Below are positions 12,783 through 54,819 of a stretch of 64,000 nt of DNA, piece after piece. Where the stretch lies: the IMG/VR virus record IMGVR_UViG_3300027868_000008. One strand, written 5' to 3'. Position 1 is the stretch's first letter. Every line of letters begins with the position of its first letter. This DNA is from a virus. The position numbers and the translations under genes were made by a program. The notes below the pieces were generated by a model. It saw only the letters and a program-made list of their open reading frames with translations. It ran no database searches and was not told the DNA's origin.

Positions 12783-12798
12783 TCTTGTTCCGCTGAAC
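12783..12798. promoter_or_regulatory. TTGTTCcgctGAACAA palindromic element (copy 1 of 4)
   Basis: 6-bp inverted arms, 4-nt spacer; about 120 nt upstream of basic-protein gene start; flanked by second IR AAGTTCC..GGAACTT. Confidence 0.5.
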
Positions 12799-13033
12799 AA
12801 GTTCCCGGTCAGAACAGGAACTTCTGCGCAATCGCAGTGACGCTAGCGCCCCACAGTACGAAGTGCCGCCACCGCGGTGCCGCTTGCACCAAACCACAAA
12901 CGGTCGGCGTGTACACGGCAGTGACAAAGACACCCAACAGGCAAACAGTCGACTGGAAATCCTCCAAAACGTCCTCCTTCTGGGGGGTGTACGATTACGT
13001 AGTTTGGGTAAGCTGGGTAAGCTCGAGGTATAC

Positions 13034-13138
13034 TACACTCACGTAGTGAGTGTAGCATACTATAGACTACCAAATCGTACAGCCAATTTGGCGTTCGATT
13101 TGGTAGTCTATCGTATAGCCTGATCGGCTATCCGATAG
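13034..13138. promoter_or_regulatory. array of three consecutive inverted repeats in long noncoding region
   Basis: TACACTCAC-gta-GTGAGTGTA; GACTACCAAATCG-N18-CGATTTGGTAGTC; CTATCGTATAGCC-tgatc-GGCTATCCGATAG. Confidence 0.5.
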
Positions 13139-13213
13139 AACCTTCGTCGGAACTCGGAGCTTACGCTCCTCATTCCAACAAAAGCGGGGGTGTTTATGTA
13201 TCTTACGCTAACA

Positions 13214-13386
13214 CCCTAGACTCTCTAGTCTGCCCCATTTGACATTGGGGGCAAACCGGGGTCAGTTTCGGTAGTCTCGACCTCGAGTTGTGACTCAAGA
13301 TCACGACGTGCATCAGAGCACGCACCACGAATGAGTAGGCACCCGAGGACGATTGCTACGATGCAGAGCCAAGCTTCTTTACTCAT
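13214..13386 (-). CDS. small protein with N-terminal signal/lipoprotein-like hydrophobic segment
   Basis: about 56 aa MSKEAWLCIVAIVLGCLLIRGACS...; ATG overlaps upstream stop (TGATGA); below ORF-track length cutoff. Confidence 0.3.
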
Positions 13387-13889
13387 CAGACCTTGTAGGG
13401 GTTACGTGATCCACGAAGCGCCAGGTCATCTCGAGTCATCTCGTAAATCGTGAACTTGGCACACTCGTATGTGATCGGCAGGTCCATTACGATGCGACCC
13501 TGCCATGTGCCGTCTGGGCGGTAGCCCAGCCGTGCCGTATCGCGCCGTACTGTGATGTAGGCGACCCCTGCGGGACGCTGCAGCCTTTCGAAGATACTGG
13601 CTAGAACCTCTAGACGCGTACTTCGATCGGGGATGACGCAAAGCACGTACGTGCACAGCACAACGTCAAAGCGAGTATGCGGCCGCTGCCACGGCGGACC
13701 GTAGTGCGGATCGTAGCCCTCGATATCGATGCTGCGATTGAACAGGTGCTTCACGTCGCCGCCGTAACCGCACCCGTAGTCGAGTACGGTTTGCGTCCTG
13801 TTGATCAGCCCCCGCCCGTACAGCCATCGTGCTGGTGCGGATAGTTTGGCGCGTTTGATGGCACTCCGGTACGTCATGTCGATCGGCAA
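13386..13889 (-). CDS. class I SAM-dependent methyltransferase
   Basis: Motif I VLDYGCGYGGD; 167 aa; target unknown. Confidence 0.7.
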   Translation of the reverse strand: MPIDMTYRSAIKRAKLSAPARWLYGRGLINRTQTVLDYGCGYGGDVKHLFNRSIDIEGYDPHYGPPWQRPHTRFDVVLCTYVLCVIPDRSTRLEVLASIFERLQRPAGVAYITVRRDTARLGYRPDGTWQGRIVMDLPITYECAKFTIYEMTRDDLALRGSRNPYKV

Positions 13890-14872
13890 ACCTCTTGCTC
13901 CTTTTTGTTCACAGAAACAAGATCTGCAGCGGGCTCCTCCTTCACATACGCGTCATGCGCATACGCGTCGAAGGACTCGAGCGCTATACGCAGTTCCCAT
14001 GTGTCACCGGCATGCAGCTTGCCGTTGCGGACCGTGATCTCTTCTGCCATGAAGTTGCAAAAGCGCTGGATCGTGTCCCGACTCCACTGCGAACCCGTGT
14101 TATACATGGACGAACGCGAGGCCGCAGCCGTCTTCTTCCAGTGCTCTTTGAGCTTACGGAAGGCCGGGTGCCGCCTGTGCGCGTTTTTACCGTGCAGCAT
14201 GTTGAGGAGCTTGATCGCTTCCATCGCACCGCCGCAGGCCCCGTACCGTGAGCTACATGACCAATCATGCCGCATTCGGACGTGGTTCCGTACGACGTCG
14301 TACACACTGTACGTCATGGAGACAATGTCGCACACGAGAACGCGCTGCGCTCTTACCTTCTTGCGCGCCTTTGCCCGCAGACGGCGTTTGATGAGATCCG
14401 GGACGTAGTCGATCTGTATGCGGCCGGACATGCCGTTGTGCATGATCTCACAACCTGCTGCTTCCCAGTCAATCTGGATCCGCCTATGGTTGCAGTCCTC
14501 GTCGTAGGTAAGCGCCCTACAGGTGATCGTGCCAAGCTCTTTCGCCAGCGCAAGCGCTTCCAGCGGATTCGTACCGATGTACCACGGTGCTTGCCCCGTA
14601 GCGACGGTGATGCAATCGTGCTGACTCCATGCCGTACGTGATCTGTAGCCATAGTGCCAGTACTCATGCACATACGACAATCGCGGATCTTCACACGGAA
14701 ACTTCTGCTGCAGCTTCGTTAGGCACGTCTCCCGATCATCGCCAAAAACGAGCCTGTTGATGTCAGCATGCAGAGCCGTTTCTTCGTCCCAGAATGGCTC
14801 CCACTTGCGTGTGTCCTCGTCATCCCCTTGGCACGCAAACCCGAGTAGCGGTGTGTCCTGCTCAAAAGACAT
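13874..14872 (-). CDS. hypothetical protein (Cys/His/Trp-rich)
   Basis: 332 aa ORF. Confidence 0.5.
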   Translation of the reverse strand: MSFEQDTPLLGFACQGDDEDTRKWEPFWDEETALHADINRLVFGDDRETCLTKLQQKFPCEDPRLSYVHEYWHYGYRSRTAWSQHDCITVATGQAPWYIGTNPLEALALAKELGTITCRALTYDEDCNHRRIQIDWEAAGCEIMHNGMSGRIQIDYVPDLIKRRLRAKARKKVRAQRVLVCDIVSMTYSVYDVVRNHVRMRHDWSCSSRYGACGGAMEAIKLLNMLHGKNAHRRHPAFRKLKEHWKKTAAASRSSMYNTGSQWSRDTIQRFCNFMAEEITVRNGKLHAGDTWELRIALESFDAYAHDAYVKEEPAADLVSVNKKEQEVCRST

Positions 14873-15502
14873 CAGCCAACGCCGAGCAGGCGCAGGCTCT
14901 CATCAAGCTCCCCAGCCAGCATCTCGACGAGCGCTTTGCCTTCGTCCGTTGCGGCCAGGCGATGCTCTGCGACGGCGGCTTTCGCGCGTCGTTCCAGTGC
15001 GGGCAGGTCGGCCAGCTTCTTGCGCCAGTCCTGCCACGTTGCCTTGTTGTCCGTGAGTTCTTTTTCCAGCTGCGCGCTCTGTGCGGCGAGCGTCGTGACT
15101 TCCTCGCCTCGCAGCACGTTGATGGATACGTTCCAGATGATGGCCGGGTCGCGTGCGCCGAGTTTGAGCGCGCAGCGAAGTTGTGTCTCGTCCGCCGTGA
15201 AGTGGTGCGTGAGCACTGTTTCGACGTCTTTGCACTTGAGCTTGGCTGCCGCCTCGCGCAGCGTGCCCTCTACGTCTGCCAGTGCCTTCTCGGCTTGTGA
15301 CTGCGCCGCAGCTGTCTGCTCTTTGTTGCGCGCCCGAATCTGCTTCTGCAGCGCGGTCTCCTGCTTGCGGCATTCCTGTATGCTCTTCTTGATCGCCTCT
15401 TCGGCGCGCGATAGCAAGATCGCGGCGACGTCGTCCTTGTCCATCTTCAAGCTGACGTCTACGAGGGCGGGCAATGCTTTCTTGTTCTCTTCGTCTGCCA
15501 TT
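14872..15502 (-). CDS. coiled-coil hypothetical protein
   Basis: Start chosen at MADEENKK; heptad-rich. Confidence 0.45.
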
Positions 15503-15821: not shown

Positions 15822-15969
15822 GTGCCTCTCCGATTCAGCAGTGTGATAGTGCTATGTTCGTCGCCATCATAGAAATTCTGTGCTGGCTTGTATTCTGCAT
15901 ACAGTTTGTTATACTCTACACAGTGAGCACTACGGTTGTGCTGATGTAGTCCTGAGTGTGAAAGGAGTA
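15822..15969. promoter_or_regulatory. divergent intergenic region between minus-strand operon and plus-strand operon
   Basis: AT-richer 148 nt; GAAAGGAG RBS before GTG at 15970; small IR AGCAC..GTGCT. Confidence 0.45.
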
Positions 15970-25283: not shown

Positions 25284-25299
25284 TTGTTCCTGTGAACAA
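25284..25299. promoter_or_regulatory. TTGTTCctgtGAACAA palindromic element (copy 2 of 4)
   Basis: 3 nt upstream of ATG of 24874..25281; followed by AATTGACTAGC. Confidence 0.45.
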
Positions 25300-25305: not shown

Positions 25306-25641
25306 CTAGCTATTTTCAGGATCGTCCTCGAGCCCCCAGCGGTCAGTATAGAGACCAATGAGGATGGACAAACGAGTAGCCGCCAGAGAGTAGATCGGCA
25401 CCTTGACGATCATACTCCATGGCGGCATCAGCCAAAGGCTGGGTAGATAGAGGAGCACTATGAGCCAGAACGCGACATGATATGAGAGACACAACCGGCA
25501 ACTAGCAAGCTGGGCGACTATGGCGGGCGCCCGCACACTGAGCCAATCACGCGTGTCCTCAAACAGGCCGTCGGGATGGAGCCACGCATTTACGATAGCC
25601 CCGGTTGCAGCAACGATAGCTACAAAATCCAGCCAGCACAT
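25306..25641 (-). CDS. small integral membrane protein
   Basis: 111 aa, 3 hydrophobic segments. Confidence 0.45.
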   Translation of the reverse strand: MCWLDFVAIVAATGAIVNAWLHPDGLFEDTRDWLSVRAPAIVAQLASCRLCLSYHVAFWLIVLLYLPSLWLMPPWSMIVKVPIYSLAATRLSILIGLYTDRWGLEDDPENS

Positions 25642-25829
25642 AGCTACTTATCCTATCATGGTGTGTGTTTCACTGCGTTGTGAAACCCTTCATGACGCAG
25701 TACGCCACGTAGATTGCACCACCCATACAAACAAGCGGTATCAAGGCCGGGAGCCCCTCACAGAGGCTCGCACAGCCGATGCCAACCGCTCCAAATAGGA
25801 TGGCGGTAGTTAGCCAGCTCTTGAACACG

Positions 25830-26066
25830 TTAGTCTTCCGGTCCAATGTGCCACGGGTCGTTCACGTCACCTTCATCGACGCCAGTAGAGGGACGGTCAG
25901 GTGCCGGGAAGCCATCGCGTAGCGTGCCCGGGAGCGGCAATGGCCGATCCAACGGATACGCATGCATCAGACTATCACCGGGGACCATGGTCGGTACTGG
26001 GCGACGGAACGTCGGCCGCAGTCCTGCCCTCTCCAAGAACAACCGCGCATTTCTGGTTACTGCCAT
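25830..26066 (-). CDS. hypothetical protein
   Basis: 78 aa ORF. Confidence 0.3.
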   Translation of the reverse strand: MAVTRNARLFLERAGLRPTFRRPVPTMVPGDSLMHAYPLDRPLPLPGTLRDGFPAPDRPSTGVDEGDVNDPWHIGPED

Positions 26067-26126
26067 AGCGGCTCCAGGCCGAGAGTATGAGGCTTCACAT
26101 TTCAGTAAGCCAGTGCTATCATATCA

Positions 26127-26174
26127 CAGATAGCGGATCACCATCAAGATTAGCCTAGCGGGGCAGATGGTGAT
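26127..26174. promoter_or_regulatory. inverted repeat ATCACCATC-N30-GATGGTGAT in divergent region upstream of terminase gene
   Basis: 9-bp arms, 35 nt upstream of terL ATG. Confidence 0.35.
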
Positions 26175-26210
26175 GATTTGTCGTAAAGTCAGGACGAACA
26201 CGGGGTCAAC

Positions 26211-29351: not shown

Positions 29352-29412
29352 TCTTTCTCCTTGTCACTGAGTTCCTGTTGCAGCTTGACGCGACGCAAGA
29401 GCTTTATTCGAG

Positions 29413-29497
29413 CGGAACGGGTAGGATTTGAACCTACGTGACTTTCGTCAACTTGTTTTCAAGACAAGGGCCTTTAGCCAGACTCGGCCACCGTTCC
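29413..29497 (-). tRNA. tRNA-Ser (anticodon TGA), type II with long variable arm
   Basis: Hand fold: acceptor GGAACGG/CCGTTCC, anticodon loop CTTGAAA, variable hairpin, T-arm GTAGGTTCAAATCCTAC. Confidence 0.7.
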
Positions 29498-29499
29498 GT

Positions 29500-29620
29500 C
29501 GGCGTGTCGATCAGTGAGTAATCTCGAACCCGACCGACACGCCTTTTGTTGGCGTGCGAAGTTCTCGGCATCCGTTGTTGGCGTCACGGATGAACGACGC
29601 CTATGGTTGCTTCGCACGCC
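29500..29620 (-). ncRNA. structured spacer between tRNA-Ser and tRNA-Val (nested hairpins; possible degenerate tRNA or processing element)
   Basis: GGCGTGTCG..CGACACGCC and GGCGTGCGAAG..CTTCGCACGCC stems; TTCGAGA T-loop-like. Confidence 0.3.
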
Positions 29621-29623
29621 AGT

Positions 29624-29697
29624 AGGCGAGGAGGGACTTGAACCCACGACCGTCCGGATGTAAGCCGGAAGCTCTGCCAGCTGAGCTACTCGCCTAT
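29624..29697 (-). tRNA. tRNA-Val (anticodon TAC)
   Basis: D-arm GCTCAGCTGGCAGAGC, anticodon loop CTTACAT, T-loop TTCAAGT. Confidence 0.6.
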
Positions 29698-29704
29698 CCT
29701 AGAG

Positions 29705-29777
29705 TGGTACGGGGTGGAGTTGAACCGCCGACACCTGGATTTTCAATCCAGTGCTCTACCTGCTGAGCTACCGCACC
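29705..29777 (-). tRNA. tRNA-Phe (anticodon GAA)
   Basis: Acceptor GGTGCGG/CCGTACC, D-arm GCTCAGCAGGTAGAGC, anticodon loop TTGAAAA, T-loop TTCAACT. Confidence 0.7.
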
Positions 29778-30355
29778 TTTTCATCCACGACATAGCCGTG
29801 GTGCTCTAGCACTTCTTTACACAGCTGCAAGAATGCGTCGACAGACATGTCTGCTTTGGCCTTGTTTGCTGCGCTGCAAGCGATACCGAGATTATCTGCC
29901 TCACAGCTACCGCCATCCGCTCGCGGTACGATGTGGTCAAAATGGTACGTTTTTGGTTGCGACAGGTCGATAGGGCGTCCGGTCAAATAACAGGTAGTCG
30001 TCTCCCCGTATTTTTCACGAACAGTGGCTGCTGTGAGCGTATAGCTGCCGCGCTTACCGTAGCGATTACCGTTGACACGTTTACGTTGAAAGTCCCTACG
30101 CTTGTTATGCAGGCGTTGGCTGTCAGTTGTTTTGGCTTCGGGTACATGCTGACGCTTTGCGGGTCGGTTCTTGAAGTTGTCGCACTTCTTGAGCAGGACG
30201 TCATTACGGCGGTAATGCTGCTGGCGGCGCTGCGCTTTGGCTTTCTGTCCCTTGCCGCAATGATATGCAACTGTGCCTTTAGAGCATCCGAGCTCTGCGG
30301 TGATGCGGTTATAGGACCACCCCTTTGCGCGCAGCGCTAGTATCTGTTCTTGCAT
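29768..30355 (-). CDS. HNH homing-type endonuclease with N-terminal HTH
   Basis: N-terminal GWSYNRITAELGCSKGTVAYHC (HTH); C-terminal CYLTGRPIDL...HFDHIVPRADGGS...DNLGIACSAANKAK HNH motif; stop abuts tRNA-Phe 5' end. Confidence 0.75.
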   Translation of the reverse strand: MQEQILALRAKGWSYNRITAELGCSKGTVAYHCGKGQKAKAQRRQQHYRRNDVLLKKCDNFKNRPAKRQHVPEAKTTDSQRLHNKRRDFQRKRVNGNRYGKRGSYTLTAATVREKYGETTTCYLTGRPIDLSQPKTYHFDHIVPRADGGSCEADNLGIACSAANKAKADMSVDAFLQLCKEVLEHHGYVVDEKVR

Positions 30356-30417
30356 ACTTTGCTCCTTACCCCAAGCATAGCATGTTTAGGGTACGAAGAA
30401 AAGAGCAAGAAATTAAG

Positions 30418-30489
30418 CGAGCCATAGAGGAGTCGAACCCCTTCTTGCAGATCCGTAATCTGCCGTGCGATCCATCACACTCATAGCCC
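30418..30489 (-). tRNA. tRNA-Arg (anticodon ACG)
   Basis: Acceptor GGGCTAT/ATGGCTC (two G.U), anticodon loop TTACGGA, T-loop TTCGACT. Confidence 0.55.
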
Positions 30490-30491
30490 AC

Positions 30492-30563
30492 AACCCGGCC
30501 AAGACTTGAACTTGGAACCTCAGGGACCAAAACCCTGCGCTCTGCCAATTGAGCTACCGGGTA
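30492..30563 (-). tRNA. tRNA-Gln (anticodon TTG)
   Basis: D-arm GCTCAATTGGCAGAGC, anticodon stem CAGGG/CCCTG loop TTTTGGT, T-arm CCAAGTTCAAGTCTTGG. Confidence 0.7.
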
Positions 30564-30570
30564 CCGTTGT

Positions 30571-30843
30571 TCATACAGGCCCGTTGGGCAACTTGAAGAT
30601 TGCCAGCGCTGTGCCGATAACACCCGAAAGGACTACGGCCCATCCAGCCGCTCCGTAAGCAACGCACTGGATAAAACTCTCTTCGGTATTCGGGTTCACC
30701 CAGCCGACGAACCCGCACAGCAGCGATAACACCAGTACCACCAGGATACCGATGACGCCGCCAGCGAAGCCGACTAGCGCCGTAATGGCGCGGTCTGTCC
30801 ATACGCTGTTCATCGCATCTCCGTACTGTGGCCAAGTCGCCAC
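30571..30843 (-). CDS. small membrane protein (two TM segments)
   Basis: 90 aa, hydrophobic. Confidence 0.45.
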   Translation of the reverse strand: MATWPQYGDAMNSVWTDRAITALVGFAGGVIGILVVLVLSLLCGFVGWVNPNTEESFIQCVAYGAAGWAVVLSGVIGTALAIFKLPNGPV

Positions 30844-31043
30844 GCTTCGTACCCGGGGTGCTTGTAGCTCCGGTTTCTGTTGGCCATGTACCTGTCCAAG
30901 CTGCTCGCCTGGCAGGACGCCACCTTGACGCTACCAGGCGTAGCGTTGCCGCCCGGGCCCAGGCCCCTGTTTCTGCGCTTCCACTCGTGCTTGTAGGCCT
31001 TCCTGGCCTTCTCCTTGTCAGCTTTCGTCTGCTGCAATGCCAC
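30810..31043 (-). CDS. hypothetical basic protein
   Basis: 77 aa ORF. Confidence 0.3.
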   Translation of the reverse strand: MALQQTKADKEKARKAYKHEWKRRNRGLGPGGNATPGSVKVASCQASSLDRYMANRNRSYKHPGYEAWRLGHSTEMR

Positions 31044-32485: not shown

Positions 32486-32489
32486 GTAG

Positions 32490-36570: not shown

Positions 36571-37325
36571 CCTTCCGGCTGTGGCGTTGCTCCTTCGCAA
36601 ATGAAGTCGAAGATCGGCTTGCCGACCTTGTACGACGTAACTTCCATTTCGTTGGCCTTCTGTCGGGCGAACTTGACTGCGTCGTGCAGCTTCGTCACCC
36701 GCTCGACCATTTCACTGCGCTTCTGCGCCTGCATTGCGCCGGACAGGTGGACGGTGTGCCACCAACCGACGATCTCGTCCTCGTGGAACTCGTTGACCTG
36801 GGCCGGATGATGCTCCGTAGCCTCGGACAATACGTGCGCCTTCGGGACGCGCTTGGTTTTGCTTGTCTCCTCCGTCTTCGACTTGAAGCAGCCGTGCTCG
36901 GTGCTCCATACCCACTCCTTCTCCGGCGGCAGAAGCGGTAGCTTCGAGATGAACGTCCGGATGTCTTCCAACTGCTTGTCCAGGAAGAGCAGATTGGTAA
37001 CCGGAACGTCGCGCAGGATGACCTTGCCGTTGACGACAACATGGGCCGTCGCAGTGCAGTTGTTATAGTCTTGTGTGGCGACCGTGTCAAACAGGTCTGT
37101 CATGGCATCCGCCACCTGCTTGACCGCATGTGCGACCTGCATCTGCACGCCACGGGACTCCGGCGGAAGATCTACGCCCTCGTCATCGATGGGCCTGTAC
37201 TCGCGGGTGATGCCTGAGAACAGGGTGTCCTTCTGGATCCTGTGGTACACCTCGGTGATCTTCGCCTGGGTGCGTTTCTTCTTGCCGTTCGTTACGGCGA
37301 CAATCTGACTCAACTTTGTGGGCAT
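36567..37325 (-). CDS. hypothetical protein
   Basis: Start at MPTKLSQIV; 252 aa. Confidence 0.5.
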   Translation of the reverse strand: MPTKLSQIVAVTNGKKKRTQAKITEVYHRIQKDTLFSGITREYRPIDDEGVDLPPESRGVQMQVAHAVKQVADAMTDLFDTVATQDYNNCTATAHVVVNGKVILRDVPVTNLLFLDKQLEDIRTFISKLPLLPPEKEWVWSTEHGCFKSKTEETSKTKRVPKAHVLSEATEHHPAQVNEFHEDEIVGWWHTVHLSGAMQAQKRSEMVERVTKLHDAVKFARQKANEMEVTSYKVGKPIFDFICEGATPQPEG

Positions 37326-37335
37326 TGTGGCCCTC

Positions 37336-37605
37336 CTACTGCTGCTGCTCAACTTCTGGGTTGGCCGACTCTTGGCCTACTGTAACCTCGGTGGTGTTTC
37401 CCCGAGTGTCGCTGCGTACTCGCAGGTTGTCAATGGCTTCGGCTGCCGCGTAGTAGTGCCCCATAGCGAAGCCAGCCATCGCGCTGGCGTAGCTATTGAT
37501 ACGGCGCATACCGCCCGACCAGGTCTCAAAGTCATCAAGTTGGTAGTCTTCTGCTGGCGGTTCTCGCCAAAGACGTGACAGGGTCCAGCGGATAACCGCG
37601 TACAC
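37336..37605 (-). CDS. hypothetical protein
   Basis: 89 aa ORF. Confidence 0.35.
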   Translation of the reverse strand: MYAVIRWTLSRLWREPPAEDYQLDDFETWSGGMRRINSYASAMAGFAMGHYYAAAEAIDNLRVRSDTRGNTTEVTVGQESANPEVEQQQ

Positions 37606-37716
37606 CCGCCATAGCCACCATTTCGGTTGGTACCGCAGTTGCCGCCATGCCTTGATGTACCATGGCTGGAACTGGTGCCACAGTCAAACACCCACATTTG
37701 CTGGGCGAAACGTAAA

Positions 37717-37789
37717 CAGCCCGCTCAGGACTTGAACCTGAAACACCATGCTCCAGAGGCATGCGCTCTGCCGATTGAGCTAGCGGGCG
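37717..37789 (-). tRNA. tRNA-Gln (anticodon CTG)
   Basis: D-arm GCTCAATCGGCAGAGC, anticodon stem CATGC/GCATG loop CTCTGGA, T-arm TCAGGTTCAAGTCCTGA. Confidence 0.6.
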
Positions 37790-37994
37790 ATGCTATAACG
37801 CCGTCCGAAGTCGGAATTGGCTTCGGGGCCTTGTATGCCCCTACGCCAATCACCCCTCGGCCATCCGGTTGCGACCCCTCCGCGCTCGCCATAAGCCGAC
37901 GTTACAGGAGGACAATTCTAACCATAGCATGTTTTAAGTGGTTACTGGTTGTCCCTGGCTCCCCGGCACTGTGTGCCGGCGGTGTGTGTGTATG

Positions 37995-38069
37995 TGACCC
38001 GTGGGGGATTTGAACCCCGCGTTGCCGGCGTGAAAGGCCGGTGTCCTAGACCGACTAGACGAACGGGCC
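37995..38069 (-). tRNA. tRNA-Glu (anticodon TTC)
   Basis: Acceptor GGCCCGT/ACGGGTC, anticodon stem CCGGC/GCCGG loop CTTTCAC, T-loop TTCAAAT. Confidence 0.65.
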
Positions 38070-38072
38070 AGG

Positions 38073-38143
38073 CAAGACGGCAAGGAGTCGAACCTCATCT
38101 TTGCAGTTTGGAACCGCAAGCCGCTCCCAGGCGGACCGCCTTT
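38073..38143 (-). tRNA. tRNA-Trp (anticodon CCA)
   Basis: Acceptor AAGGCGG/CCGTCTT, D-stem CCGC/GCGG, loop TTCCAAA, T-loop TTCGACT. Confidence 0.55.
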
Positions 38144-38234
38144 TCTTTACATCAAGGTCTTGAAATGATTGAACAGCACCAGCCGCGGCGCCGGTGGCAG
38201 GGCCACGGATACGGCTTTCGGCCTACGATTACGG

Positions 38235-38420
38235 TCATGATCTACTGCAGGCCCCGCATATGGAGCAGAGCAGCGGCCAGTTGCTTTCTTTGCCCTGCGG
38301 CCAGTCACGGAACATCCAGCGGTGTTGGCAATGGTCCTGCGTACGACGCGACAACACCACAACGCCCACGATCCCGCACGCACCGCGGTAGAATCGATGC
38401 ACTACTTTTCTCATCACTGT
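38235..38420 (-). CDS. small Cys-rich hypothetical protein
   Basis: 60 aa; GAAAGGAG RBS; immediately downstream of tRNA-Asp on minus strand. Confidence 0.4.
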   Translation of the reverse strand, partial: TVMRKVVHRFYRGACGIVGVVVLSRRTQDHCQHRWMFRDWPQGKESNWPLLCSICGACSRS

Positions 38421-38430
38421 ACTCCTTTCA

Positions 38431-38500
38431 GCGCCCCCAGGAGAATTGAACTCCTGCCTCCGCGTCGACAGCGCGGCGCCCTACCATTAGGCTAGGGGGC
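38431..38500 (-). tRNA. tRNA-Asp (anticodon GTC)
   Basis: D-stem GCCT/GGGC, anticodon stem CCGCG/CGCGG loop CTGTCGA, T-arm AGGAGTTCAATTCTCCT. Confidence 0.55.
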
Positions 38501-38501
38501 C

Positions 38502-38529
38502 GACTCGAACACGCCTTGACGTTCGAGTC
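38502..38529. terminator. hairpin GACTCGAAC-N10-GTTCGAGTC between small basic-protein gene and tRNA-Asp
   Basis: 9-bp perfect inverted repeat. Confidence 0.35.
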
Positions 38530-38542
38530 TGTCCGTACGTTC

Positions 38543-38761
38543 CTAGCGCCGCTTCTCTTTCTGCTTGGCCTTGGCGTCCTTCTTCGCGTCCTTCGCGGAC
38601 ACCTTTGGCTTCTTGGGAGCGGCCTTGATGACGTCTTTGCCGCAGGAGGTACATCGTTCCCCGCCTACGGTCCCCACGCGTGTTCTGTTCACCACACGCA
38701 TGCCAGGACCGTATCTGTCATCCTGCCACGCATTACGGCAAACGCATTTCGTAATCGGCAT
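38543..38761 (-). CDS. small zinc-ribbon protein with lysine-rich basic tail
   Basis: 72 aa; C..C...C..C pattern then KKPKVSAKDAKKDAKAKQKEKRR; AAGGAG RBS. Confidence 0.55.
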   Translation of the reverse strand: MPITKCVCRNAWQDDRYGPGMRVVNRTRVGTVGGERCTSCGKDVIKAAPKKPKVSAKDAKKDAKAKQKEKRR

Positions 38762-38931
38762 CCGGGTCTCCTTTGTTGTGATTGTTAAGAGCGGATCGGG
38801 TTTGCACCGATACTTGTGGACGTACGAGAGTAGTCTCGTGGCGCTCCATACCCACGCTGCTGGCTCCTACGGCGCGTTATCATAGGCCTACATATGGCCC
38901 ACACTTGCCGGGCTTGCCACCGCTCTGAGGT

Positions 38932-39004
38932 CGGACGAGAAGGAGTTGAACCTCCGACTTCATCCTTATCAGGGATGCGCTCTACCAACTGAGCTATCGT
39001 CCGC
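38932..39004 (-). tRNA. tRNA-Ile (anticodon GAT)
   Basis: Acceptor CGGACGA/TCGTCCG, D-arm GCTCAGTTGGTAGAGC, loop CTGATAA, T-loop TTCAACT. Confidence 0.7.
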
Positions 39005-39138
39005 AGGCAGCAAGCAGCCGGCTCGACCAGCTGCTTGCCGCCATCAAAGATGTCAAAACACGAAGTTGCCTCAAAAAGTTGGCAGGCGGCCCGAGCACAT
39101 CGAGCCGCCTGCCGGGTCCTCCAACCCTAGGAGAAATT

Positions 39139-40032
39139 CTAGCGGCCGCGCCCGCCTGCAGCTGCGCGTGCCTGTGTTTCAACAGCGGCCTGGAGCGTAG
39201 ACAGTGCCTGACGGTTCGAGGAAGCCTCGACTGCCGCCGTAGCGACGTCCTTTGCGTCCTTCTGTGCTGTTGCCAGCTGATCCGCGAGCATTTCGATACG
39301 TGTCTGGAGCGATTGGACGTCGCCCGTCAGGTTCGTAATCGTTGCGGCTGCCAGCTGTGCTGCGGACTCGGCGTCCTTCTTCAGCAGCGCGCGCTCATGG
39401 CCAAATCCAGCCGTAAGCGTCTTGGTGGCCGCGTCCGTGGCCTCTTTTGCGGCTGTGGCGACCAGGTCCTCGATGCCGTCGACCTTGGTTTGCAGCTCTT
39501 CGGCTTTCTCTTCGCGCTCGGCGACGACGGCAACACGCGCGGCCAGATCCCTGTTGACGTCTTCCGTCCTGACTGCCTCTGCGCGTTGTGCCGTCGTGCG
39601 CGCGTCGTCAGCTTCTGCTGCAATGCGTTCTAGCCTACGGCCCTGCGCATATGTATGCTCTTCGCCGCGACGCTGCCACTCCTGGTCCTGCTCGGACCGG
39701 CGCAACGCAAACGCCTTGTCGGTGGCGGCCGCTGTCTCCGCAGCGCGCTCCTCCTCCTCTTCGATCTGCTGCTTGATGTTGGCAAGCGTGTCAGCATCCA
39801 TCTCGATCGAGTGGATCTCTTTTAGCTCATCCTTGCGGGCGGAGATCGCTGTCTCCAGCTGGGTGAGCTCTTCGATCTTGGTGGCCATGGACACGCCAAC
39901 GCCGGCTAGCGTGCCCTGCACGCTTACCTGTAGGTCGTTGAGCTGATCGAGTGTCTTCTTAACGTCGGCTTCCGACGTAGCAGCGAGCGCCGCTGCTGTT
40001 TCCACTGTTGTGCGCTTTTTGGCTCGTGCCAT
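39139..40032 (-). CDS. long coiled-coil protein (Ala/Glu/Gln-rich)
   Basis: 297 aa; AAGGAG RBS. Confidence 0.5.
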   Translation of the reverse strand: MARAKKRTTVETAAALAATSEADVKKTLDQLNDLQVSVQGTLAGVGVSMATKIEELTQLETAISARKDELKEIHSIEMDADTLANIKQQIEEEEERAAETAAATDKAFALRRSEQDQEWQRRGEEHTYAQGRRLERIAAEADDARTTAQRAEAVRTEDVNRDLAARVAVVAEREEKAEELQTKVDGIEDLVATAAKEATDAATKTLTAGFGHERALLKKDAESAAQLAAATITNLTGDVQSLQTRIEMLADQLATAQKDAKDVATAAVEASSNRQALSTLQAAVETQARAAAGGRGR

Positions 40033-40095
40033 CTCTGGAATCTACTCCTTTGGTGCACAATGAAAAACGGGCGACCAACACGGTCGCCCTGAAAG

Positions 40096-40168
40096 TGGCG
40101 CGGGGCAGACTCGAACTGCCGACTGCGTGGTTATGAGCCACGTGAGCTACCAACTGCTCTACCGCGCT
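40096..40168 (-). tRNA. tRNA-Met (anticodon CAT) with A1:C72 mismatch
   Basis: D-arm GAGCAGTTGGTAGCTC, anticodon stem CGTGG/CCACG loop CTCATAA, T-arm GGCAGTTCGAGTCTGCC. Confidence 0.65.
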
Positions 40169-40969: not shown

Positions 40970-41887
40970 TCATGTGCGCCGTAAGCGCGGGTCGAACGTG
41001 CTAGAAGTACCAAGATACTGTGTTCCGTACGCCTGGTCAACTAGAAACGGCTTTTCTGCGTCCGACATCCCGAAATCTGCTTCGGGAACATCCTTCGCCT
41101 CCAGCTCAACTATTGCCAGATCGTCACTGTGGACCGCGTCTGCCAGCGCCCTGAACTCCGCGGGCTCCAGGCTGCAATCGATGTGATGGACGAATGAGTG
41201 GCGGGACAGGCAGAAATGCCGCTCGACCATCTCAGCGCCCAGCTGTGCAGCCATGATTGATGACTTGATGCCCATCTCGTGCCCTGAGTAGCCAATACGG
41301 ATCCTATCTGACCCGAATAACCGCTTCAGCGTAGGGATGTTCTCCAGCCGAAGATAGAGGTCCGGGCACGGGTACACAGCGACACAGTGCAGGATCCAGA
41401 GCTTCTTGTGCTCCTCGAATATCGCGATCACCTGCTCGATCTCAGGCAGCGTGCAGCCAGCAACTGACAGCACGACCTCCCATGATACCGGCGTCTCTGC
41501 CGCAATCTGTCGCAGGACTTCTGGCTTATGCGCGTTCGTGGATGAGACCTTGATGCGCCGCCGTACTGAGTTTCCACGCAGGAATGCCATACTATCTGCA
41601 GTCTGCGCGGTAGCATACCACGGGATGTCCGCATAGCGGCACTCTGCGCTGAAGCGGTGCCAGTCACCATCATCGAGCTCGAACATGGTCCGATAGTCCC
41701 GATAGGTCTTCCCGAACGGGCTGGAATAGGGACTGTTCAGCTTTTCGGGGGTGTAGAACGACTTCACGTGCTTCTTCTGCATCTTGATGGTATCAGCGCC
41801 GGCCTGCTTGGCCGCTTTGACCATGCGGAGCAACAGCCCCATATGGCCCATGTGGTTTGTCGTAAACTCGGCTACGAGCTCAACCAT
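40970..41887 (-). CDS. neuB: N-acetylneuraminate (nonulosonic acid) synthase, NeuB/PseI/LegI family
   Basis: N-terminal VAEFTTNHMGHMGLLLRMVKAAKQAGADTIKMQK matches the NeuB TIM-barrel signature; 305 aa. Confidence 0.7.
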   Translation of the reverse strand: MVELVAEFTTNHMGHMGLLLRMVKAAKQAGADTIKMQKKHVKSFYTPEKLNSPYSSPFGKTYRDYRTMFELDDGDWHRFSAECRYADIPWYATAQTADSMAFLRGNSVRRRIKVSSTNAHKPEVLRQIAAETPVSWEVVLSVAGCTLPEIEQVIAIFEEHKKLWILHCVAVYPCPDLYLRLENIPTLKRLFGSDRIRIGYSGHEMGIKSSIMAAQLGAEMVERHFCLSRHSFVHHIDCSLEPAEFRALADAVHSDDLAIVELEAKDVPEADFGMSDAEKPFLVDQAYGTQYLGTSSTFDPRLRRT

Positions 41888-42066
41888 TGTCTGCCTCCCG
41901 TATCGGAACTACGTCACCGGCTGCAAGCAACGCAGCTGTATGTTGCTGTTCCGCCTTACGCTGTTTCTCGAGCTCTTTGATCCGCGCCTCTTTCTGGCGG
42001 ATGACTGCTTTGGCCTCTCGTACAGCTGCTGCCGTCTCCCGTTCCTGCTGGCCAAGATAGTAGGCA

Positions 42067-42723
42067 TTACCACCTCCCGTGTCTTGAGTACAGCGCCTCC
42101 GGCGTGAGCTCTTCCAGGTCTGCTCGGATCTTGTCTTCGATAACGGCCCGCGCTTCTGCGTGGATACAGATCTGTTCTGCCTTTGCATGCGGGATAACCA
42201 GTACGCCATCGTTATCTGCAAAGATGATGTCGTTAGGCTGTGCTCGGACCGTTGGACTGAGCCAAATCGGTTTTTGCCATGCACGAATTTGCCACCGACC
42301 GTACGCATCTACCGGCGTTACGCCCAAGCAATAGACGGGAAACTTGATCTGCCGGATCATGCGCGCATCGCGGGTATGGCCACGAATGACAGCACCAACA
42401 GCGCCAGCCTTACGTGCTAGCCTAGCCGAAATGTCGCCGTAGTGCGCAACGCTCAGGTCGTCACCGCCGTCGATCACCTGTACGCAGCCGGGCGTCATTT
42501 CCTGTAGCATCGTAAGTCGCACACTGTCGTCGAGTAGTTTATCGTCGGCTAGGTGCTGTCCCACACACGTAAACGCAGGGCCAACAAGCGGCCGCGGGGC
42601 GTGTCGCCCTAGCGGTTTGATAGTCGTACCCGGCGTGAAATTTCGTAGGTCCATGTCGAAGTACATCGTGTCATAGACCACGCCAGCATACAGCCGGCGC
42701 AGACGCTCAACTACTGTCTGCAC
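42067..42723 (-). CDS. RraA/MenG-like family protein (RNase E inhibitor RraA or class II oxo-acid aldolase fold)
   Basis: VIDGGDDLSVAHYGDISARLARKAGAVGAVIRGHTRD...FPVYCLGVTP family motifs. Confidence 0.6.
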   Translation of the reverse strand: MQTVVERLRRLYAGVVYDTMYFDMDLRNFTPGTTIKPLGRHAPRPLVGPAFTCVGQHLADDKLLDDSVRLTMLQEMTPGCVQVIDGGDDLSVAHYGDISARLARKAGAVGAVIRGHTRDARMIRQIKFPVYCLGVTPVDAYGRWQIRAWQKPIWLSPTVRAQPNDIIFADNDGVLVIPHAKAEQICIHAEARAVIEDKIRADLEELTPEALYSRHGRW

Positions 42724-43459
42724 GTGGGTCTCCTGGTTTCAGTGGAAACGCTGATAGCATTGGGTCAGCGGCAGCTGTAAACGCACCCTCGACACCGACG
42801 TCAAAGGCATCTGCATAGCGCTGGAGTAGCTCTGGATCGTCTTCTGTACGCAGACGGCGTACGAGATCCGGCATAGCACACCAGCACAGTTGGGTCGTAC
42901 ATGGCTGCCCAAGCCAACTGCCGTCAAGGATCTTGGCGAACAGCAGCTTCTCTTTCAGCATCATGTGCGGAAACCCAGCGTCAACATACGGGGTCCGCGC
43001 ATCGTAGTAGTGTGGTTGCTCGGGTACCGTCGAATCGAAGCCAAACAGTTTGAGTACGTCTGGCTTGAAGACCTTCATAGCCATAGCCACGGCAATGAAG
43101 CCTGTAGACGGACAAAGCTTGAGTCTGAAGGCTAGCCGCTTCCAGTACTCGTGCGTAAGCCACCGTATCGGCTGCATGTCAGCGAGCTTGTTGAACTCTC
43201 GCAGATTCCGCTTGCCGTTTACGGTGTTGTGCATTATCTGCGTCGGGCCGTGCGTGTACCAGTGCTCACAGTAGAGATCAGCAGGCCTGCTGTCCCACCC
43301 ATAAGGGTCACCAAACCAGGCGACCGCGTGGGTACGCTTACCCGCGTCCTCGGCAGCGTGCGCCCAAAAGGCCTTGATACGGACGACCTTGTCCGCATTG
43401 TCGATGCTCTTGCCCTTGCCGGCCGCAGATGGGCCGTTTGCTACAACAGAGACGATCAT
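42707..43459 (-). CDS. GT42/CstII-like nonulosonic acid (sialyl) transferase
   Basis: N-terminal VVANGPS (cf CstII IIAGNGPS); STGFIAVAMAMKVFKPDVLKLFGFD aligns with CstII TSGVYMCAVAIALGYKEIYLSGIDF; downstream His in FPHMM. Confidence 0.55.
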   Translation of the reverse strand: MIVSVVANGPSAAGKGKSIDNADKVVRIKAFWAHAAEDAGKRTHAVAWFGDPYGWDSRPADLYCEHWYTHGPTQIMHNTVNGKRNLREFNKLADMQPIRWLTHEYWKRLAFRLKLCPSTGFIAVAMAMKVFKPDVLKLFGFDSTVPEQPHYYDARTPYVDAGFPHMMLKEKLLFAKILDGSWLGQPCTTQLCWCAMPDLVRRLRTEDDPELLQRYADAFDVGVEGAFTAAADPMLSAFPLKPGDPRADSS

Positions 43460-43467
43460 AGTAGTAC

Positions 43468-44172
43468 CTAGTGCTTGGTTAGTGCATTCTGCCCGCGTGC
43501 GATTAGATCGGCAATGTCGAAGTCTTCTTCTGTGTTGATATCGATAGCCTCGAGGGCGTCGACGAAGATCATAGAGACGTTAGGCATCGGTGTGCGGCAG
43601 CGTGTGCGCATCAACGCCTCGCTGGTGACTACGTACAGCGCGGTGGTGTCCCAAACCGTCTCAGGTACAGTTTGGCTGTTGGGTAGGGGTTTCAAGTTGT
43701 AACACGGCTGGCAGATATCCTGGACGGGGAGGCCCCGACGATGCCAGCGGAGCAGGTGTGCTTTGCATACCAGGAATGCACCGTCATAGTCGTGATAAAC
43801 GACTTCCTTTATCGCCTTGCTGATCGTCTCCGGACGCACAAACGGACTGGTACAGAGGTACTGCACATAGATCCTTGCCGGTATACGTGACATGGTGTCG
43901 AGCAACAGATGGTTGCCGTCCGTGCTGTTTGTGTCCAGCTGCGACGACCGGCGTATGACGTGCGCGCACTCGTCTGTCTCTACGCTTGCGCGGATCTCGG
44001 GGCAGTCCGTATCGAGAAACACCTTGTCGATCTCGGGGACGCTCCGCAACTTGTTAAAGGCCCTGGCGGCCAATGGCGGACCCTGTCCGCCGAGTACACG
44101 CATGTTCTTTCCAGGCACGCGTGTACTGGTGCCCTTTGCCGGCACGACGCCGACGACCTTAAACTTCTTCAT
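43468..44172 (-). CDS. neuA: acylneuraminate cytidylyltransferase (CMP-nonulosonic acid synthetase), NeuA family
   Basis: Start at MKKFKVVGVVPAKGTSTRVPGKNM, matching CMP-NeuAc synthetase P-loop (VIPARGGSKRIPRKNI). Confidence 0.65.
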   Translation of the reverse strand: MKKFKVVGVVPAKGTSTRVPGKNMRVLGGQGPPLAARAFNKLRSVPEIDKVFLDTDCPEIRASVETDECAHVIRRSSQLDTNSTDGNHLLLDTMSRIPARIYVQYLCTSPFVRPETISKAIKEVVYHDYDGAFLVCKAHLLRWHRRGLPVQDICQPCYNLKPLPNSQTVPETVWDTTALYVVTSEALMRTRCRTPMPNVSMIFVDALEAIDINTEEDFDIADLIARGQNALTKH

Positions 44173-44440
44173 CTGGCTCCTTCTCCGCGGCGTCGGGGAC
44201 ACTTTGTAGGTGGTTGCGTGTTGCCGACAGGATCTGGCGGACATGTGATACCTGTTCAACGGTGACGCGATTGGCTGTCTCAAGCTTAGCGATATGCACC
44301 AGCTCTGCGACATCGCTACGTGCGGCGCAGATGAAACTAGCGATATCGCGGTCTACCGGAAAGCGTGGCAGTACCTTTTCCAGCGCATACAGCCGTTTAT
44401 GCGCCGCCCTACACAGCTTCAGCATATTACGCGCATTCAT
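44159..44440 (-). CDS. hypothetical protein
   Basis: Start at MNARNMLKL. Confidence 0.35.
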   Translation of the reverse strand: MNARNMLKLCRAAHKRLYALEKVLPRFPVDRDIASFICAARSDVAELVHIAKLETANRVTVEQVSHVRQILSATRNHLQSVPDAAEKEPDEEV

Positions 44441-53556: not shown

Positions 53557-53607
53557 TGCATTATTTCCTAGGCCATGGTGGCATGTATGCAACAGAAAGG
53601 ATGCCAC

Positions 53608-54084
53608 ATGACTACCAAGTTATGTCGACGTTGCCACCGGCGGCGGCAACTGAAATACTTTACGCGAGACCGTCGGAGCCCCGACGGCCTTGCATACTAC
53701 TGCCGTGACTGTAAACGGGAGTACTCACGTGCATTTTTCGAAAGGCGCCCCGAACGGCGCCGGCAGTATAATGCAGCACGCGCCCCTCGCGATCCCGCCG
53801 AAAAGCGACTATCCGGACGTAAATCGATGCTAAAGCAGTATGGCCTTACCGTCGAAGCCTATGAGAAGTTGGCACAGGATCAGCACCATAAGTGCGCCAT
53901 CTGTAACCAACCCGAAACAGCTACTTATGCCAGCAGGCCTCGTCGCCTTGCAGTGGACCATAACCATACTACGTCACAGCTGCGAGCATTGCTGTGTTAC
54001 CGTTGCAACTCGCTGTTAGGTTACGGGCAAGAGAGTCCGGCCATCCTGCGCGCAGCCGCAGACTACCTGGAAAAACACGCTTAA
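53608..54084 (+). CDS. recombination endonuclease VII (Holliday junction resolvase, T4 gp49-like)
   Basis: HHKCAICNQ...LAVDHNHTTSQLRALLCYRCNSLLGY matches Endonuclease_7 signature; AAAGGA RBS. Confidence 0.85.
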   Translation: MTTKLCRRCHRRRQLKYFTRDRRSPDGLAYYCRDCKREYSRAFFERRPERRRQYNAARAPRDPAEKRLSGRKSMLKQYGLTVEAYEKLAQDQHHKCAICNQPETATYASRPRRLAVDHNHTTSQLRALLCYRCNSLLGYGQESPAILRAAADYLEKHA

Positions 54085-54452
54085 CTGCCAATAGGCTCCG
54101 GAAGGTTATGGGCTCCTAGCCAGTCACGCTCGGCTATTATAGCTGCTGCGTGGCTGACATACGGGCCCAATACTGCGCCACCCACCGGGAGCATGTCTGC
54201 CCACCAGTGGTTGGTCAACTCCTCATCGTCCTTGAAGCAGCGCGTCCGCTCGTCCGACGTACGGCTGACATGGCCGTAGAGTACCAGCCATTCGCGCGCA
54301 TCGTGCGACAGCGACGACCAGGTTTCCACATGCGAGTTCCGCCACGTTTTGACCTTCGGGCCGATGACAGCGCCAACGGCCTCGGAAGCCGGATCCACCA
54401 GGTGTTTGGCAGATCCGTCCTTCTCGACGATCAGCTCAACTGATCTCGTCAT
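54081..54452 (-). CDS. hypothetical protein
   Basis: 123 aa ORF. Confidence 0.45.
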   Translation of the reverse strand: MTRSVELIVEKDGSAKHLVDPASEAVGAVIGPKVKTWRNSHVETWSSLSHDAREWLVLYGHVSRTSDERTRCFKDDEELTNHWWADMLPVGGAVLGPYVSHAAAIIAERDWLGAHNLPEPIGS

Positions 54453-54592
54453 GTCGCTCCTCTCGTTGTAATGCGCTGCACCCGTCCGCAGTTCTTACTA
54501 CGCTTGTGCGAATGCGGACTGCAGCTCTTTGGTTTCAACGATCTCGTCGTTGTGGTCTAGGCACACGCCCAGTAGCCACTGTAGCAGACGGA

Positions 54593-54798
54593 TCATTGCT
54601 GTTGCTCGGCCTTGATCTCCACCTGCTCGGGTGGCTCATAGGCCTCTTGCGTATCATTCGATGCGATGACGGCGCCGAAGCAGCCCTCAAACGCAGCCGA
54701 GATGGTCCGGCACTTGCCGCCGGCTACACCGATTACGTGTGTCTCTGTTTCGCCGTTAGGCTTCACAGTGATTTCGATTCGTTGCTCAGATGCCACGA
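54593..54798 (-). CDS. hypothetical protein (GTG start)
   Basis: AGGAGA RBS 8 nt before GTG at 54798; track ORF N-terminus reads through the palindromic element. Confidence 0.4.
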
Positions 54799-54805
54799 GG
54801 TCGTT

Positions 54806-54819
54806 CTCCTGATTCTGTT
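54806..54819. promoter_or_regulatory. TGTTCagctGAACA palindromic element (copy 4 of 4)
   Basis: Perfect 14-bp palindrome; flanks GATTCTG...GATTGGGCTAGAC mirror copy 3; between stop of 54838..55251 and RBS of 54593..54798. Confidence 0.5.

Follow-up and report, generated by a model that had tools for sequence, protein, structure and literature searches.

Several kinds of short sequence recur at dispersed positions in phage genomes. In the Streptomyces phage phiC31, 17-bp palindromes known as conserved inverted repeats (CIRs) provide many intergenic early-gene operators for one repressor, and the C1 operators of P1 are dispersed as well. Cluster O mycobacteriophages such as Corndog carry a 17-bp dyad, TGTTCGG-N3-CCGAACA, in more than 30 copies, of which a third are intragenic; these repeats are neither associated with promoters nor closely linked to start codons, and a dimeric binder has been predicted for them (PMC4351075). 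The stoperators of Cluster A phages (L5, Bxb1, TipsytheTRex) are asymmetric 13-bp sites of fixed orientation, bound by the monomeric immunity repressor of these temperate phages, which stops elongating polymerase and does not act at promoters (PMC9283540, PMC6550527). In Cluster K, the start-associated sequences (SAS/ESAS) contain or abut the ribosome-binding site (RBS) of a subset of genes (PMC3203893), and in T4-type phages PeSL cassettes sit at the boundaries of variable genes (PMC2839356, PMC4122927). Among bacterial operators, the Verrucomicrobia LexA box, TGTTC-N4-GAACA, has been validated by electrophoretic mobility shift assay and mutagenesis (PMC4951493). Here we describe a palindrome, TTGTTC-N4-GAACAA, that recurs in a stretch of viral DNA of 64,000 nucleotides (IMG/VR record IMGVR_UViG_3300027868_000008; the whole stretch is called the window below) and at the same gene junctions in related phages. 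We propose, at a probability of roughly 0.55, that it is a dyad operator on double-stranded DNA that is read by a protein.

Results

The palindrome recurs in non-coding gaps of the window

A pattern search across the window found four exact copies of TTGTTC-N4-GAACAA, compared with a chance expectation of 0.00 in 100 dinucleotide-preserving shuffles, and a mismatch search added two copies with one mismatch (Table 1). In the copy at 54815, whose plus strand reads CTGTTCAGCTGAACAA (CTGTTC...GAACAA), the single mismatch lies at the outermost position. No other palindrome of the form 6-N(0-8)-6 has more than two copies in the window, the maximum reached in shuffles being two. The half-sites themselves are scarce (12 TTGTTC and 14 GAACAA). 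A GAACAA partner stands exactly 4 nt from four of the 12 TTGTTC, and no other spacing is represented. Five of the six sites are non-coding, in a window whose non-coding share is at most ~19% (binomial P ~0.001). The copies are spaced ~5-10 kb apart, and gaps of 22-24 nt between stop and start codons are filled by the 16-mer.

A sequence-only reading of this DNA had listed four sites. Its positions 25284-25299 and 35113-35128 stand, 12783-12798 moves to 12785-12800, and the fourth copy, said to fit the motif at 54806-54819, is in fact the one-mismatch copy at 54815-54830. The count was too low, with one exact copy (8086) and one near copy (13905) overlooked. The extended flanks that it described for 35113 and 54815 were recovered (GATT.TGTTCAGCTGAACAAG.TT..GCTAGAC). 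When the 100-nt flanks of the six sites were aligned, similarity ended at ~24 bp, except for GTCTAGC, which is common to these two sites; at 54815, GTCTAGC constitutes the Val-stop of the upstream gene, whose orthologues keep the stop as TAG or TAA. The flank alignment leads us to reject a longer dispersed repeat or mobile-element remnant, which that reading had named as a way in which it could fail: conservation ends 4 nt outside the 16-mer. The other, a similar frequency of the motif in coding DNA, does not apply either, as five of the six sites are non-coding. A literature query with the motif sequence returned only primer noise.

Half-sites change symmetrically and genome by genome

All six window sites are of the TTGTTC type. 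In lineage 3300017992_000015, the left arm reads TTATTC at six of six sites and the right arm GAATAA at four of six, and lineage 3300021075_000003 uses TTCATC/GATGAA at three of its four sites. The half-site variants sort genome by genome, not site by site. Change that is concerted, symmetric about the dyad and genome-wide is the mark left by a trans-acting reader of two identical subunits whose specificity has drifted. Over 38 sites, 92.5% of arm positions are complementary, and double-sided arm changes number 12 against 4.1 in shuffles, a value that none of 500 shuffles reached. The central arm pair is nevertheless non-complementary in 11 of the 38 sites (TTGATC/GAACAA or TTGTTC/GATCAA), including five of seven non-coding sites in one lineage; a mismatch at this position would destabilise a 6-bp A/T-rich stem, which argues against an RNA hairpin. 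The palindrome forms part of the minimum-free-energy fold at only three of the six window sites. At four of the six, fold stability is within ~1.5 standard deviations of the shuffled mean; 35113 (z = -3.7) and 25284 (z = -2.3) are more stable than their shuffled counterparts. Taken together, these data show that sequence rather than pairing is constrained.

The motif is kept at orthologous junctions in related phages

A clade of relatives is represented in IMG/VR by contigs of 54-226 kb. Three orthologous junctions retain the motif in relatives whose proteins are 35-70% identical, a divergence at which intergenic DNA free of constraint would no longer be recognisable. The junction ahead of the SbcD-like nuclease gene carries it in four relatives (Table 1), the junction ahead of a 135-aa gene in six (L075 8744, L079 8987, L061 2590, L057 8970, L073 8712 and L064 6608), and the junction between the DUF1257-like and DUF2997 genes in three (L088 12140, L083 12149 and L089 13006). 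In a 153-kb relative, perfect copies at ~9.9, 91 and 151.5 kb indicate that the motif spans the whole genome. It is absent from relatives whose large terminase is at most 53% identical.

Beyond these junctions, the site exactly fills the spacer between tRNA-Thr and tRNA-Lys in L060, L065 and L067, lies 4 nt ahead of tRNA-Gly in L073, and comes after an intrinsic terminator in L003 (3683) and L030 (13193). A coding copy, translated as W-N-F-V-L-M-N-K, lies in a ~237-aa gene between the helicase gene and a DnaB-like gene, a position just past the start of the window contig. Three relatives keep this copy although it calls for non-preferred codons (TTT GTT). The TTATTC lineage has W-E-L-I-L-M-N-K instead, with TTATTC..GAATAA produced by a V-to-I change and a synonymous change, so that both arms are altered.

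The conserved element is a dyad of about 24 bp

In all, 36 sites were aligned in gene direction. Information content is limited to positions -4 to +3 around the 16-mer (AATY TTGWTC A NNN GAWCAA AAT), and no conserved positions were found farther upstream or downstream. The flanks are symmetric too (AATY / RAT), and where no start codon abuts the spacer tends to open with A and close with T, indicating that the ideal site is a palindrome of ~24 bp. Across lineages the conserved element can be written AATY-TTGWTC-A-NN-T-GAWCAA-RATT; the ideal site is AATY-TTGTTC-A-NN-T-GAACAA-RATT, its 3' side being eroded by coding and RBS constraints.

At sites no more than 5 nt from a start codon, the spacer and the following G form a Shine-Dalgarno (SD)-like sequence in 16 of 18 cases (AGGA-G, CGGA-G, ACAG-G or ATGG-G), as opposed to 4 of 21 at the other sites (Fisher P = 1.7e-5); sites without an abutting start have a separate SD 2-4 nt past the motif. 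The SD within the spacer implies that transcripts at start-abutting sites include the spacer. As the sites between tRNA-Thr and tRNA-Lys, before tRNA-Gly and upstream of tRNA-Pro make clear, the motif is packed tightly against translation starts, yet it is not defined by them.

Anatomy of the six window sites

The gene contexts given by the sequence-only reading were roughly right, with one exception: site 12785 lies 159 nt, not ~120 nt, from the ATG (12625) of the 242-aa basic-protein gene, and a terminator stands between them. The leader as a whole folds with a z-score of -4.5. The terminator-like hairpin at 12690-12748 is followed by two further hairpins before the ATG, and on its upstream side the site is abutted by an additional GTTC-N7-GAAC dyad (12801-12815). 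Relative L003 shows a similar layout at 4707, with the motif, GATT, a GC hairpin and an A-run.

At 8086, the spacer and the following G provide an SD-like GGG(A). Site 13905 overlaps the last codons of gene 13874-14872, whose protein is conserved up to residue 331 of 332, and stands 15 nt ahead of the TTG start (13889) of a methyltransferase gene that is lineage-specific, the relatives having no ortholog. Site 25284 occupies a 24-nt gap, made up of 6 nt, the motif and 2 nt, between the stop of gene 25306-25641 and an ATG (25281). Its spacer provides an SD-like AGG, and the 135-aa gene that follows heads an array of RNase H-like, GHKL-ATPase and ligase genes. Site 35113 lies 74 nt upstream of tRNA-Pro (35038), with a third half-site, AGCTGAAC, directly upstream of it; of the two hairpins that separate it from the tRNA, the second has a 12-bp GC stem followed by TATTTCT. 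Site 54815 begins 7 nt past the stop (54838) of the DUF1257-like gene, with AGGAGA 4 nt further on and the GTG start (54796) of the DUF2997 gene 18 nt downstream. On identical public contigs, independent gene calling arrives at the same boundaries.

Table 1 Copies of the palindrome and other features with their positions. Site contexts in the window are read in gene sense (minus strand).
Feature	Genome	Position	Strand	Copy or sequence	Context
Site 8086	window	8086-8101		exact; aatc TTGTTC ATGG GAACAA aatc ATG	22-nt gap: stop of 119-aa gene (8104), 2 nt, motif, ATG (8081) of SbcD-like nuclease gene
Terminator-like hairpin, strong	window	12690-12748	minus	perfect 11-nt arms, longer stem, then TTTTCATTT	intrinsic-terminator-like
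GC hairpin	window	12762-12775	minus	GCAA loop	9 nt downstream of site 12785 (gene sense)
Site 12785	window	12785-12800		exact; TTGTTC AGCG GAACAA gatt	600-nt gene-free stretch
Site 13905	window	13905-13920		one mismatch; gatc TTGTTT CTGT GAACAA aAAGGAG	
Site 25284	window	25284-25299		exact; aatt TTGTTC ACAG GAACAA gt ATG	
Two stable hairpins	window	35045-35104	minus	z = -5.0	between site 35113 and tRNA-Pro
Site 35113	window	35113-35128		exact, perfect 16-bp palindrome TTGTTCAGCTGAACAA	tRNA region poor in open reading frames (ORFs)
Site 54815	window	54815-54830		one mismatch; aatc TTGTTC AGCT GAACAG aatc AGGAGA ... GTG	
SbcD junction	L002	9984		TTGTTC CGGA GAACAA g-ATG	
SbcD junction	L003	9975		TTGTTC AGGA GAACAA a-ATG	
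SbcD junction	L001	9981		TTGTTC AGGA GATCAA aatt-ATG	
SbcD junction	L107	3594		TTATTC AGGA GAATAA a-ATG	
Coding copy	L001	17255-17270			
Coding copy	L002	19609-19624 (= L108 12013)			
Coding copy	L003	18587-18602			
Coding copy	L107	12028-12043			
NeuB	window	40970-41887			nonulosonic acid cluster
RraA-like protein	window	42067-42723			nonulosonic acid cluster
GT29 sialyltransferase-like protein	window	42707-43459			nonulosonic acid cluster
CMP-sugar synthetase-like protein	window	43468-44313			nonulosonic acid cluster

Search for a binding protein

Essentially all proteins of the window were scanned against Pfam and PHROGs, and none emerged as a convincing binding protein. The only Pfam DNA-binding matches in the window were a weak HTH_32 (61668-62486) and a helix-turn-helix (HTH)-HNH endonuclease. 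The former is the protein that the sequence-only reading had put forward as a candidate regulator; its HTH_32 match is below threshold, and its gene belongs to a lineage-specific insert. Indeed, the three-gene block 59950-63295 is absent from the fetched relatives that carry the motif, whereas the flanking genes (59497-59799 and 63669-63998) are conserved. Because this candidate is lineage-specific while the relatives share the motif, it is unlikely to be the reader. In place of the block, the relatives encode a 103-aa protein, a 75-aa Cys-rich protein and a ~320-aa protein with a predicted membrane segment, a coiled coil and a Cys-rich C-terminus. The 135-aa protein encoded behind the best-conserved site was considered as a regulator and set aside, being acidic and without a DNA-binding signature. 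With E. coli LexA as a tblastn probe, no LexA homologue was found in the fetched DNA.

Known elements that do not fit

Several familiar signals were compared with the sites and rejected. An intrinsic terminator is at odds with a stem of four A-T and two G-C pairs followed by AAT and not by a U-run, and no terminator coincides with any window site. A sigma-70 promoter finds no match at any window site, and no positions upstream of -4 are conserved. An N4-type hairpin promoter has an extrudable hairpin of 5-7 bp with a 3-nt loop, the loop here being 4 nt (or 2), and central pairing is broken in 11 of 38 sites; such a promoter needs a giant virion RNA polymerase, and the largest ORF of the window encodes 932 aa with a weak primase match. 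The 16-bp parS consensus is TGTTNCACGTGAAACA. The arms of parS share TGTT.C with the motif, but the halves are 2 bp closer here, and domain scans detected no ParB or ParA domain in the window. FNR/CRP boxes (TTGA-N6-TCAA), IHF sites and the Bacteroidetes -7 element were set aside because of their spacing or conserved positions.

Other features of the window and its relatives

The window has ~58% G+C, 16 tRNA genes and genes that lie mostly on the minus strand. They encode a helicase, SbcC-like and SbcD-like nucleases, an HldE-like enzyme, an exonuclease, an NAD-dependent ligase, a GHKL ATPase, a large terminase, the primase-like 932-aa protein, an AAA / DUF1257-like / DUF2997 trio and a NeuB / CMP-sugar / GT29 cluster. 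Near and protein-level searches found no close relative among GenBank phages. The same sequence is present in JGI, ENA and Logan assemblies, the source samples being JGI 3300027881 and 3300027865, ENA ERZ27250393 and SRR8436477; the longest carrying contig is 65.5 kb and stops ~160 nt beyond the window start. All public contigs with the window sequence stop ~160 nt past the helicase gene (window 1-160; L105), where relatives have a replication module composed of the 237-aa gene and DnaB-like, primase-like and family A DNA polymerase genes; the contig end could be an assembly break or the end of the genome. A large-terminase profile scan of GTDB detected only distant relatives (at most 50% identity) in metagenome-assembled genomes (MAGs) of mixed taxa, and the named NeuB homologues (50-56% identity) come from Polyangiaceae, Geminicoccaceae and Burkholderiaceae. 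The nonulosonic (sialic-like) acid cluster at 40970-44313 (Table 1) is lacking in the fetched relatives.

The trio is conserved and consists of the genes for the AAA ATPase (55260-56960), the DUF1257-like protein (54838-55251) and DUF2997 (54593-54796); within 53608-56960 it is adjoined by an Endonuclease VII gene (53608-54084) on the opposite strand. The palindrome separates the second and third genes of the trio in all lineages examined.

The gene-free stretch at 12626-13225 contains inverted repeats of 24 nt (13057-13080 / 13093-13116) and 15 nt (13028-13042 / 13046-13060), as well as a sigma-70-like match on the minus strand (13086-13059). Its counterpart in L003 (~4300-4700) is also non-coding and is A+T-richer. 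The stretch may serve as an origin or as a major regulatory region.

The 16 tRNA genes lie on the minus strand within 29412-40168, with the HTH-HNH endonuclease gene (29768-30355) inside the array. ARAGORN assigned a 4-nt anticodon to a tRNA at 30417-30507 that overlaps tRNA-Gln, and Rfam scores 30418-30489 as a tRNA; the Rfam scan of the window returned tRNAs only. Between site 35113 and the DUF7873 gene, ~1.5 kb (35085-36566) are without a convincing ORF. Several frames of this region translate to tRNA-like 'GFEP' strings, with nothing at the Rfam gathering threshold, which suggests decayed tRNA genes or other non-coding RNAs.

A second motif, GTCTAGGCTRTCA, has exactly two copies, 8485-8497 (-) and 59815-59827 (-), both intergenic and 25-30 nt ahead of minus-strand starts. 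Looser copies occur at 13209-13221 and elsewhere; with two mismatches allowed, six were counted against 2.0 in shuffles, a borderline excess.

Discussion

The palindrome sites are real, non-coding and dyad-symmetric, are kept at orthologous junctions, and co-evolve genome-wide with the lineage. The operator and regulon proposed by the sequence-only reading agree with these data in the dyad, the non-coding and conserved placement, and the symmetric change of half-sites across a genome; a promoter at the sites and the named regulator were not supported. The predicted reader of the operator is most likely a homodimeric, sequence-specific regulator encoded by the phage, because phages with large terminases 72-79% identical differ in their half-site specificity. 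We infer that this protein dimer acts on transcription at or through the junctions. Copies placed every ~5-10 kb, directly ahead of selected genes, tRNAs and short structured leaders, would together define a dispersed, phage-specific regulon within tightly packed co-directional arrays. The 4-nt spacer would go unread by the regulator and may have been co-opted as a Shine-Dalgarno sequence where the start codon abuts. A repressor blocking read-through, or occluding a non-canonical internal start, would then confer temporal control on the downstream genes and tRNAs. Given the lack of a visible promoter and the position of the sites inside co-directional arrays, repression by roadblock or occlusion is our leading guess as to the mode of action; activation is possible.

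Several observations weigh against an operator. The protein scans produced no convincing binder, no sigma-70-type promoter (-35/-10 with 16-18 nt spacing) is found at any window site, and nothing is conserved upstream of the site, so that the target controlled by an operator is not visible. The excess of symmetric arm co-variation over shuffles is equally predicted by a hairpin. In L003 (3683) and L030 (13193) the site directly follows an intrinsic terminator, and window sites 12785 and 35113 have a terminator downstream, two arrangements that fit a transcription start better than a roadblock. Finally, the ~65 kb covered for the window's lineage belong to a genome that is probably 150 kb or larger.

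The two gene orders, terminator-motif-gene in relatives and motif-structured RNA-terminator in the window, are the reason why we keep a promoter or activator site as the main rival. The motif would then be a transcription start signal particular to the phage, a promoter or promoter core, recognised by phage-encoded or phage-modified machinery, possibly through a dimeric activator, each marked junction opening a new transcript, including tRNA transcripts and short structured RNAs. We regard this as unlikely on balance, even though much in the placement of the sites speaks for it. They lie immediately ahead of an SD, a start codon or tRNAs; after the terminators of L003 and L030 there is no room for another promoter, or 13 nt, respectively; sites 12785 and 35113 are followed by structured RNAs of ~60-100 nt ending in terminators; and the motif precedes lineage-specific genes (the methyltransferase at 13905, NDK at L001 2293, an extra gene at L060 9005). 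Promoters that co-evolve with a phage polymerase or sigma factor also change in concert across a genome. Dyad symmetry and symmetric half-site change, by contrast, are unexpected for an asymmetric polymerase or sigma factor, and domain scans found neither an RNA polymerase nor a sigma factor among the window proteins. No single start point fits both the SD in the spacer at about half of the sites and the SD 2-4 nt after the motif elsewhere, and the divergent intergenic regions 15822-15879 and 25642-26210, which must hold primary promoters, are without the motif. A bolder version, slightly less probable again, would make the palindrome the start signal of an undescribed mode of phage transcription, in which a homodimeric phage-encoded specificity factor (or an extruded hairpin) uses about one site per 5-10 kb, each marked gene, tRNA or structured RNA forms its own unit, and the same 16 bases serve as RBS. 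A nucleic-acid hairpin as such, either an RNA hairpin that presents or masks the RBS, for translational coupling or control, or acts as a processing signal, or an N4-type DNA hairpin promoter, would account for the arm complementarity and for double-sided changes (G-C to A-T or C-G) above shuffles. Both one-mismatch window copies form G-U pairs in the sense RNA, and the SD-like sequence falls in the loop where the start codon abuts. We nonetheless hold a hairpin to be very unlikely: the central pair of its 6-bp A/U-rich stem is broken in 11 of 38 sites, half of the window folds do without the palindrome, copies within one genome share sequence and not merely pairing, and copies occur between tRNAs, inside coding sequence and far from starts. 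Moreover, no U-run follows the stem, and the window encodes no giant virion RNA polymerase.

The sites could alternatively be SOS boxes of a host LexA, through which repair and replication genes of the phage would be induced by DNA damage. The 14-bp core TGTTC-N4-GAACA and its spacing are those of the V. spinosum LexA motif (PMC4951493) and are intact in five of the six window sites; predicted Verrucomicrobia boxes also lie 0-10 nt from starts and in tandem with extra half-sites, like 12785 and 35113, and the SbcD/SbcC/helicase and RNase H-like/ligase arrays are among the downstream genes. The genes behind the sites are mixed, with tRNAs, the methyltransferase and DUF2997 next to SbcD and the ligase array. 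Several points make this explanation improbable. At the same junctions, relatives whose large terminases are 72-79% identical have TTATTC, TTCATC or mixed TTGWTC arms; LexA specificity, by contrast, does not vary across a phylum, and V. spinosum LexA no longer binds once a single base of TGTTC is changed. The T/A + AATY flanks are invariant in the phages, while those of Verrucomicrobia vary (GTGTTC..GAACAC, for example). In addition, sites stand ahead of tRNAs, no lexA or recA lies nearby, and neither the MAGs, which are of mixed taxa, nor the named NeuB homologues, which come from other groups, point to a Verrucomicrobia host. The last explanation, to which we give hardly any weight, is that the motif is a gene-boundary linker, a recombination substrate for module swapping between co-infecting relatives in the manner of the T4-type PeSL cassettes. 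Three of the six window sites do adjoin genes specific to the lineage (methyltransferase, basic protein, tRNA-Pro region), three lineages have different lineage-specific genes behind the motif and the same conserved gene upstream, and the extra gene of L060 is right behind the motif. Half of the sites, however, lie between conserved core genes at the same junction in all lineages, 16-24 bp offers little length for homologous recombination, swapping from one lineage to another would be thwarted by the lineage-specific sequence drift, and the inserted genes are not flanked by motif pairs.

This phage clade (contigs of 150-226 kb) is without a cultured relative and has almost no annotated regulators; a cis-element conserved at orthologous junctions offers a handle on its expression programme. 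The three natural specificity variants, TTGTTC, TTATTC and TTCATC, are a ready starting point both for tracing the cognate protein through co-variation and for work on the joint evolution of a regulator with its scattered operators.

By comparison with described systems, the element belongs to a known kind of dispersed phage repeat, of which it is a new example, with clearer positional rules, in an uncharacterised phage clade. The CIRs of phiC31 and the C1 operators of P1 belong to temperate phages whose repressors are known, as are the promoters at most sites, and they bear no sequence similarity to the motif; the available DNA revealed neither a repressor or integrase nor any further hint of lysogeny. 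Start-associated sequences are reportedly asymmetric 13-bp motifs tied strictly to translation starts; unlike them, the window motif is symmetric and also occurs at tRNAs, at leaders 90-160 nt from a start and in coding sequence. With the Verrucomicrobia LexA box it has in common the 5-bp arms, the 4-bp spacer, the proximity to starts and the tandem half-sites, from which the phage sites depart by their invariant flanks, their arm drift among close relatives and their placement at tRNAs. Like stoperators, it occurs in many copies in the short gaps of co-directional arrays, and the co-evolution of stoperator sequence with a phage-encoded protein between related phages resembles the lineage drift seen here; stoperators are asymmetric and oriented, whereas the window motif is dyad-symmetric, flanks included. 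The Cluster O repeats, the nearest analogue, likewise form a short dispersed dyad, mostly intergenic, in lytic-looking phages, with arms that start with TGTTC. They differ in geometry (7-N3-7, or TGTTC-N7-GAACA, versus 6-N4-6, or TGTTC-N4-GAACA), in number and location (more than 30 copies with a third in genes, versus about six per 64 kb, five of the six non-coding), and in not being tied to starts, whereas the sites described here are mostly 0-18 nt from an SD, a start or a tRNA; the hosts and phage lineages are unrelated. The window motif is the same kind of element as the Cluster O dyads and not of the same family. It provides a second, independent example beside these unexplained dyads, and its positional rules may make the function of such elements testable.

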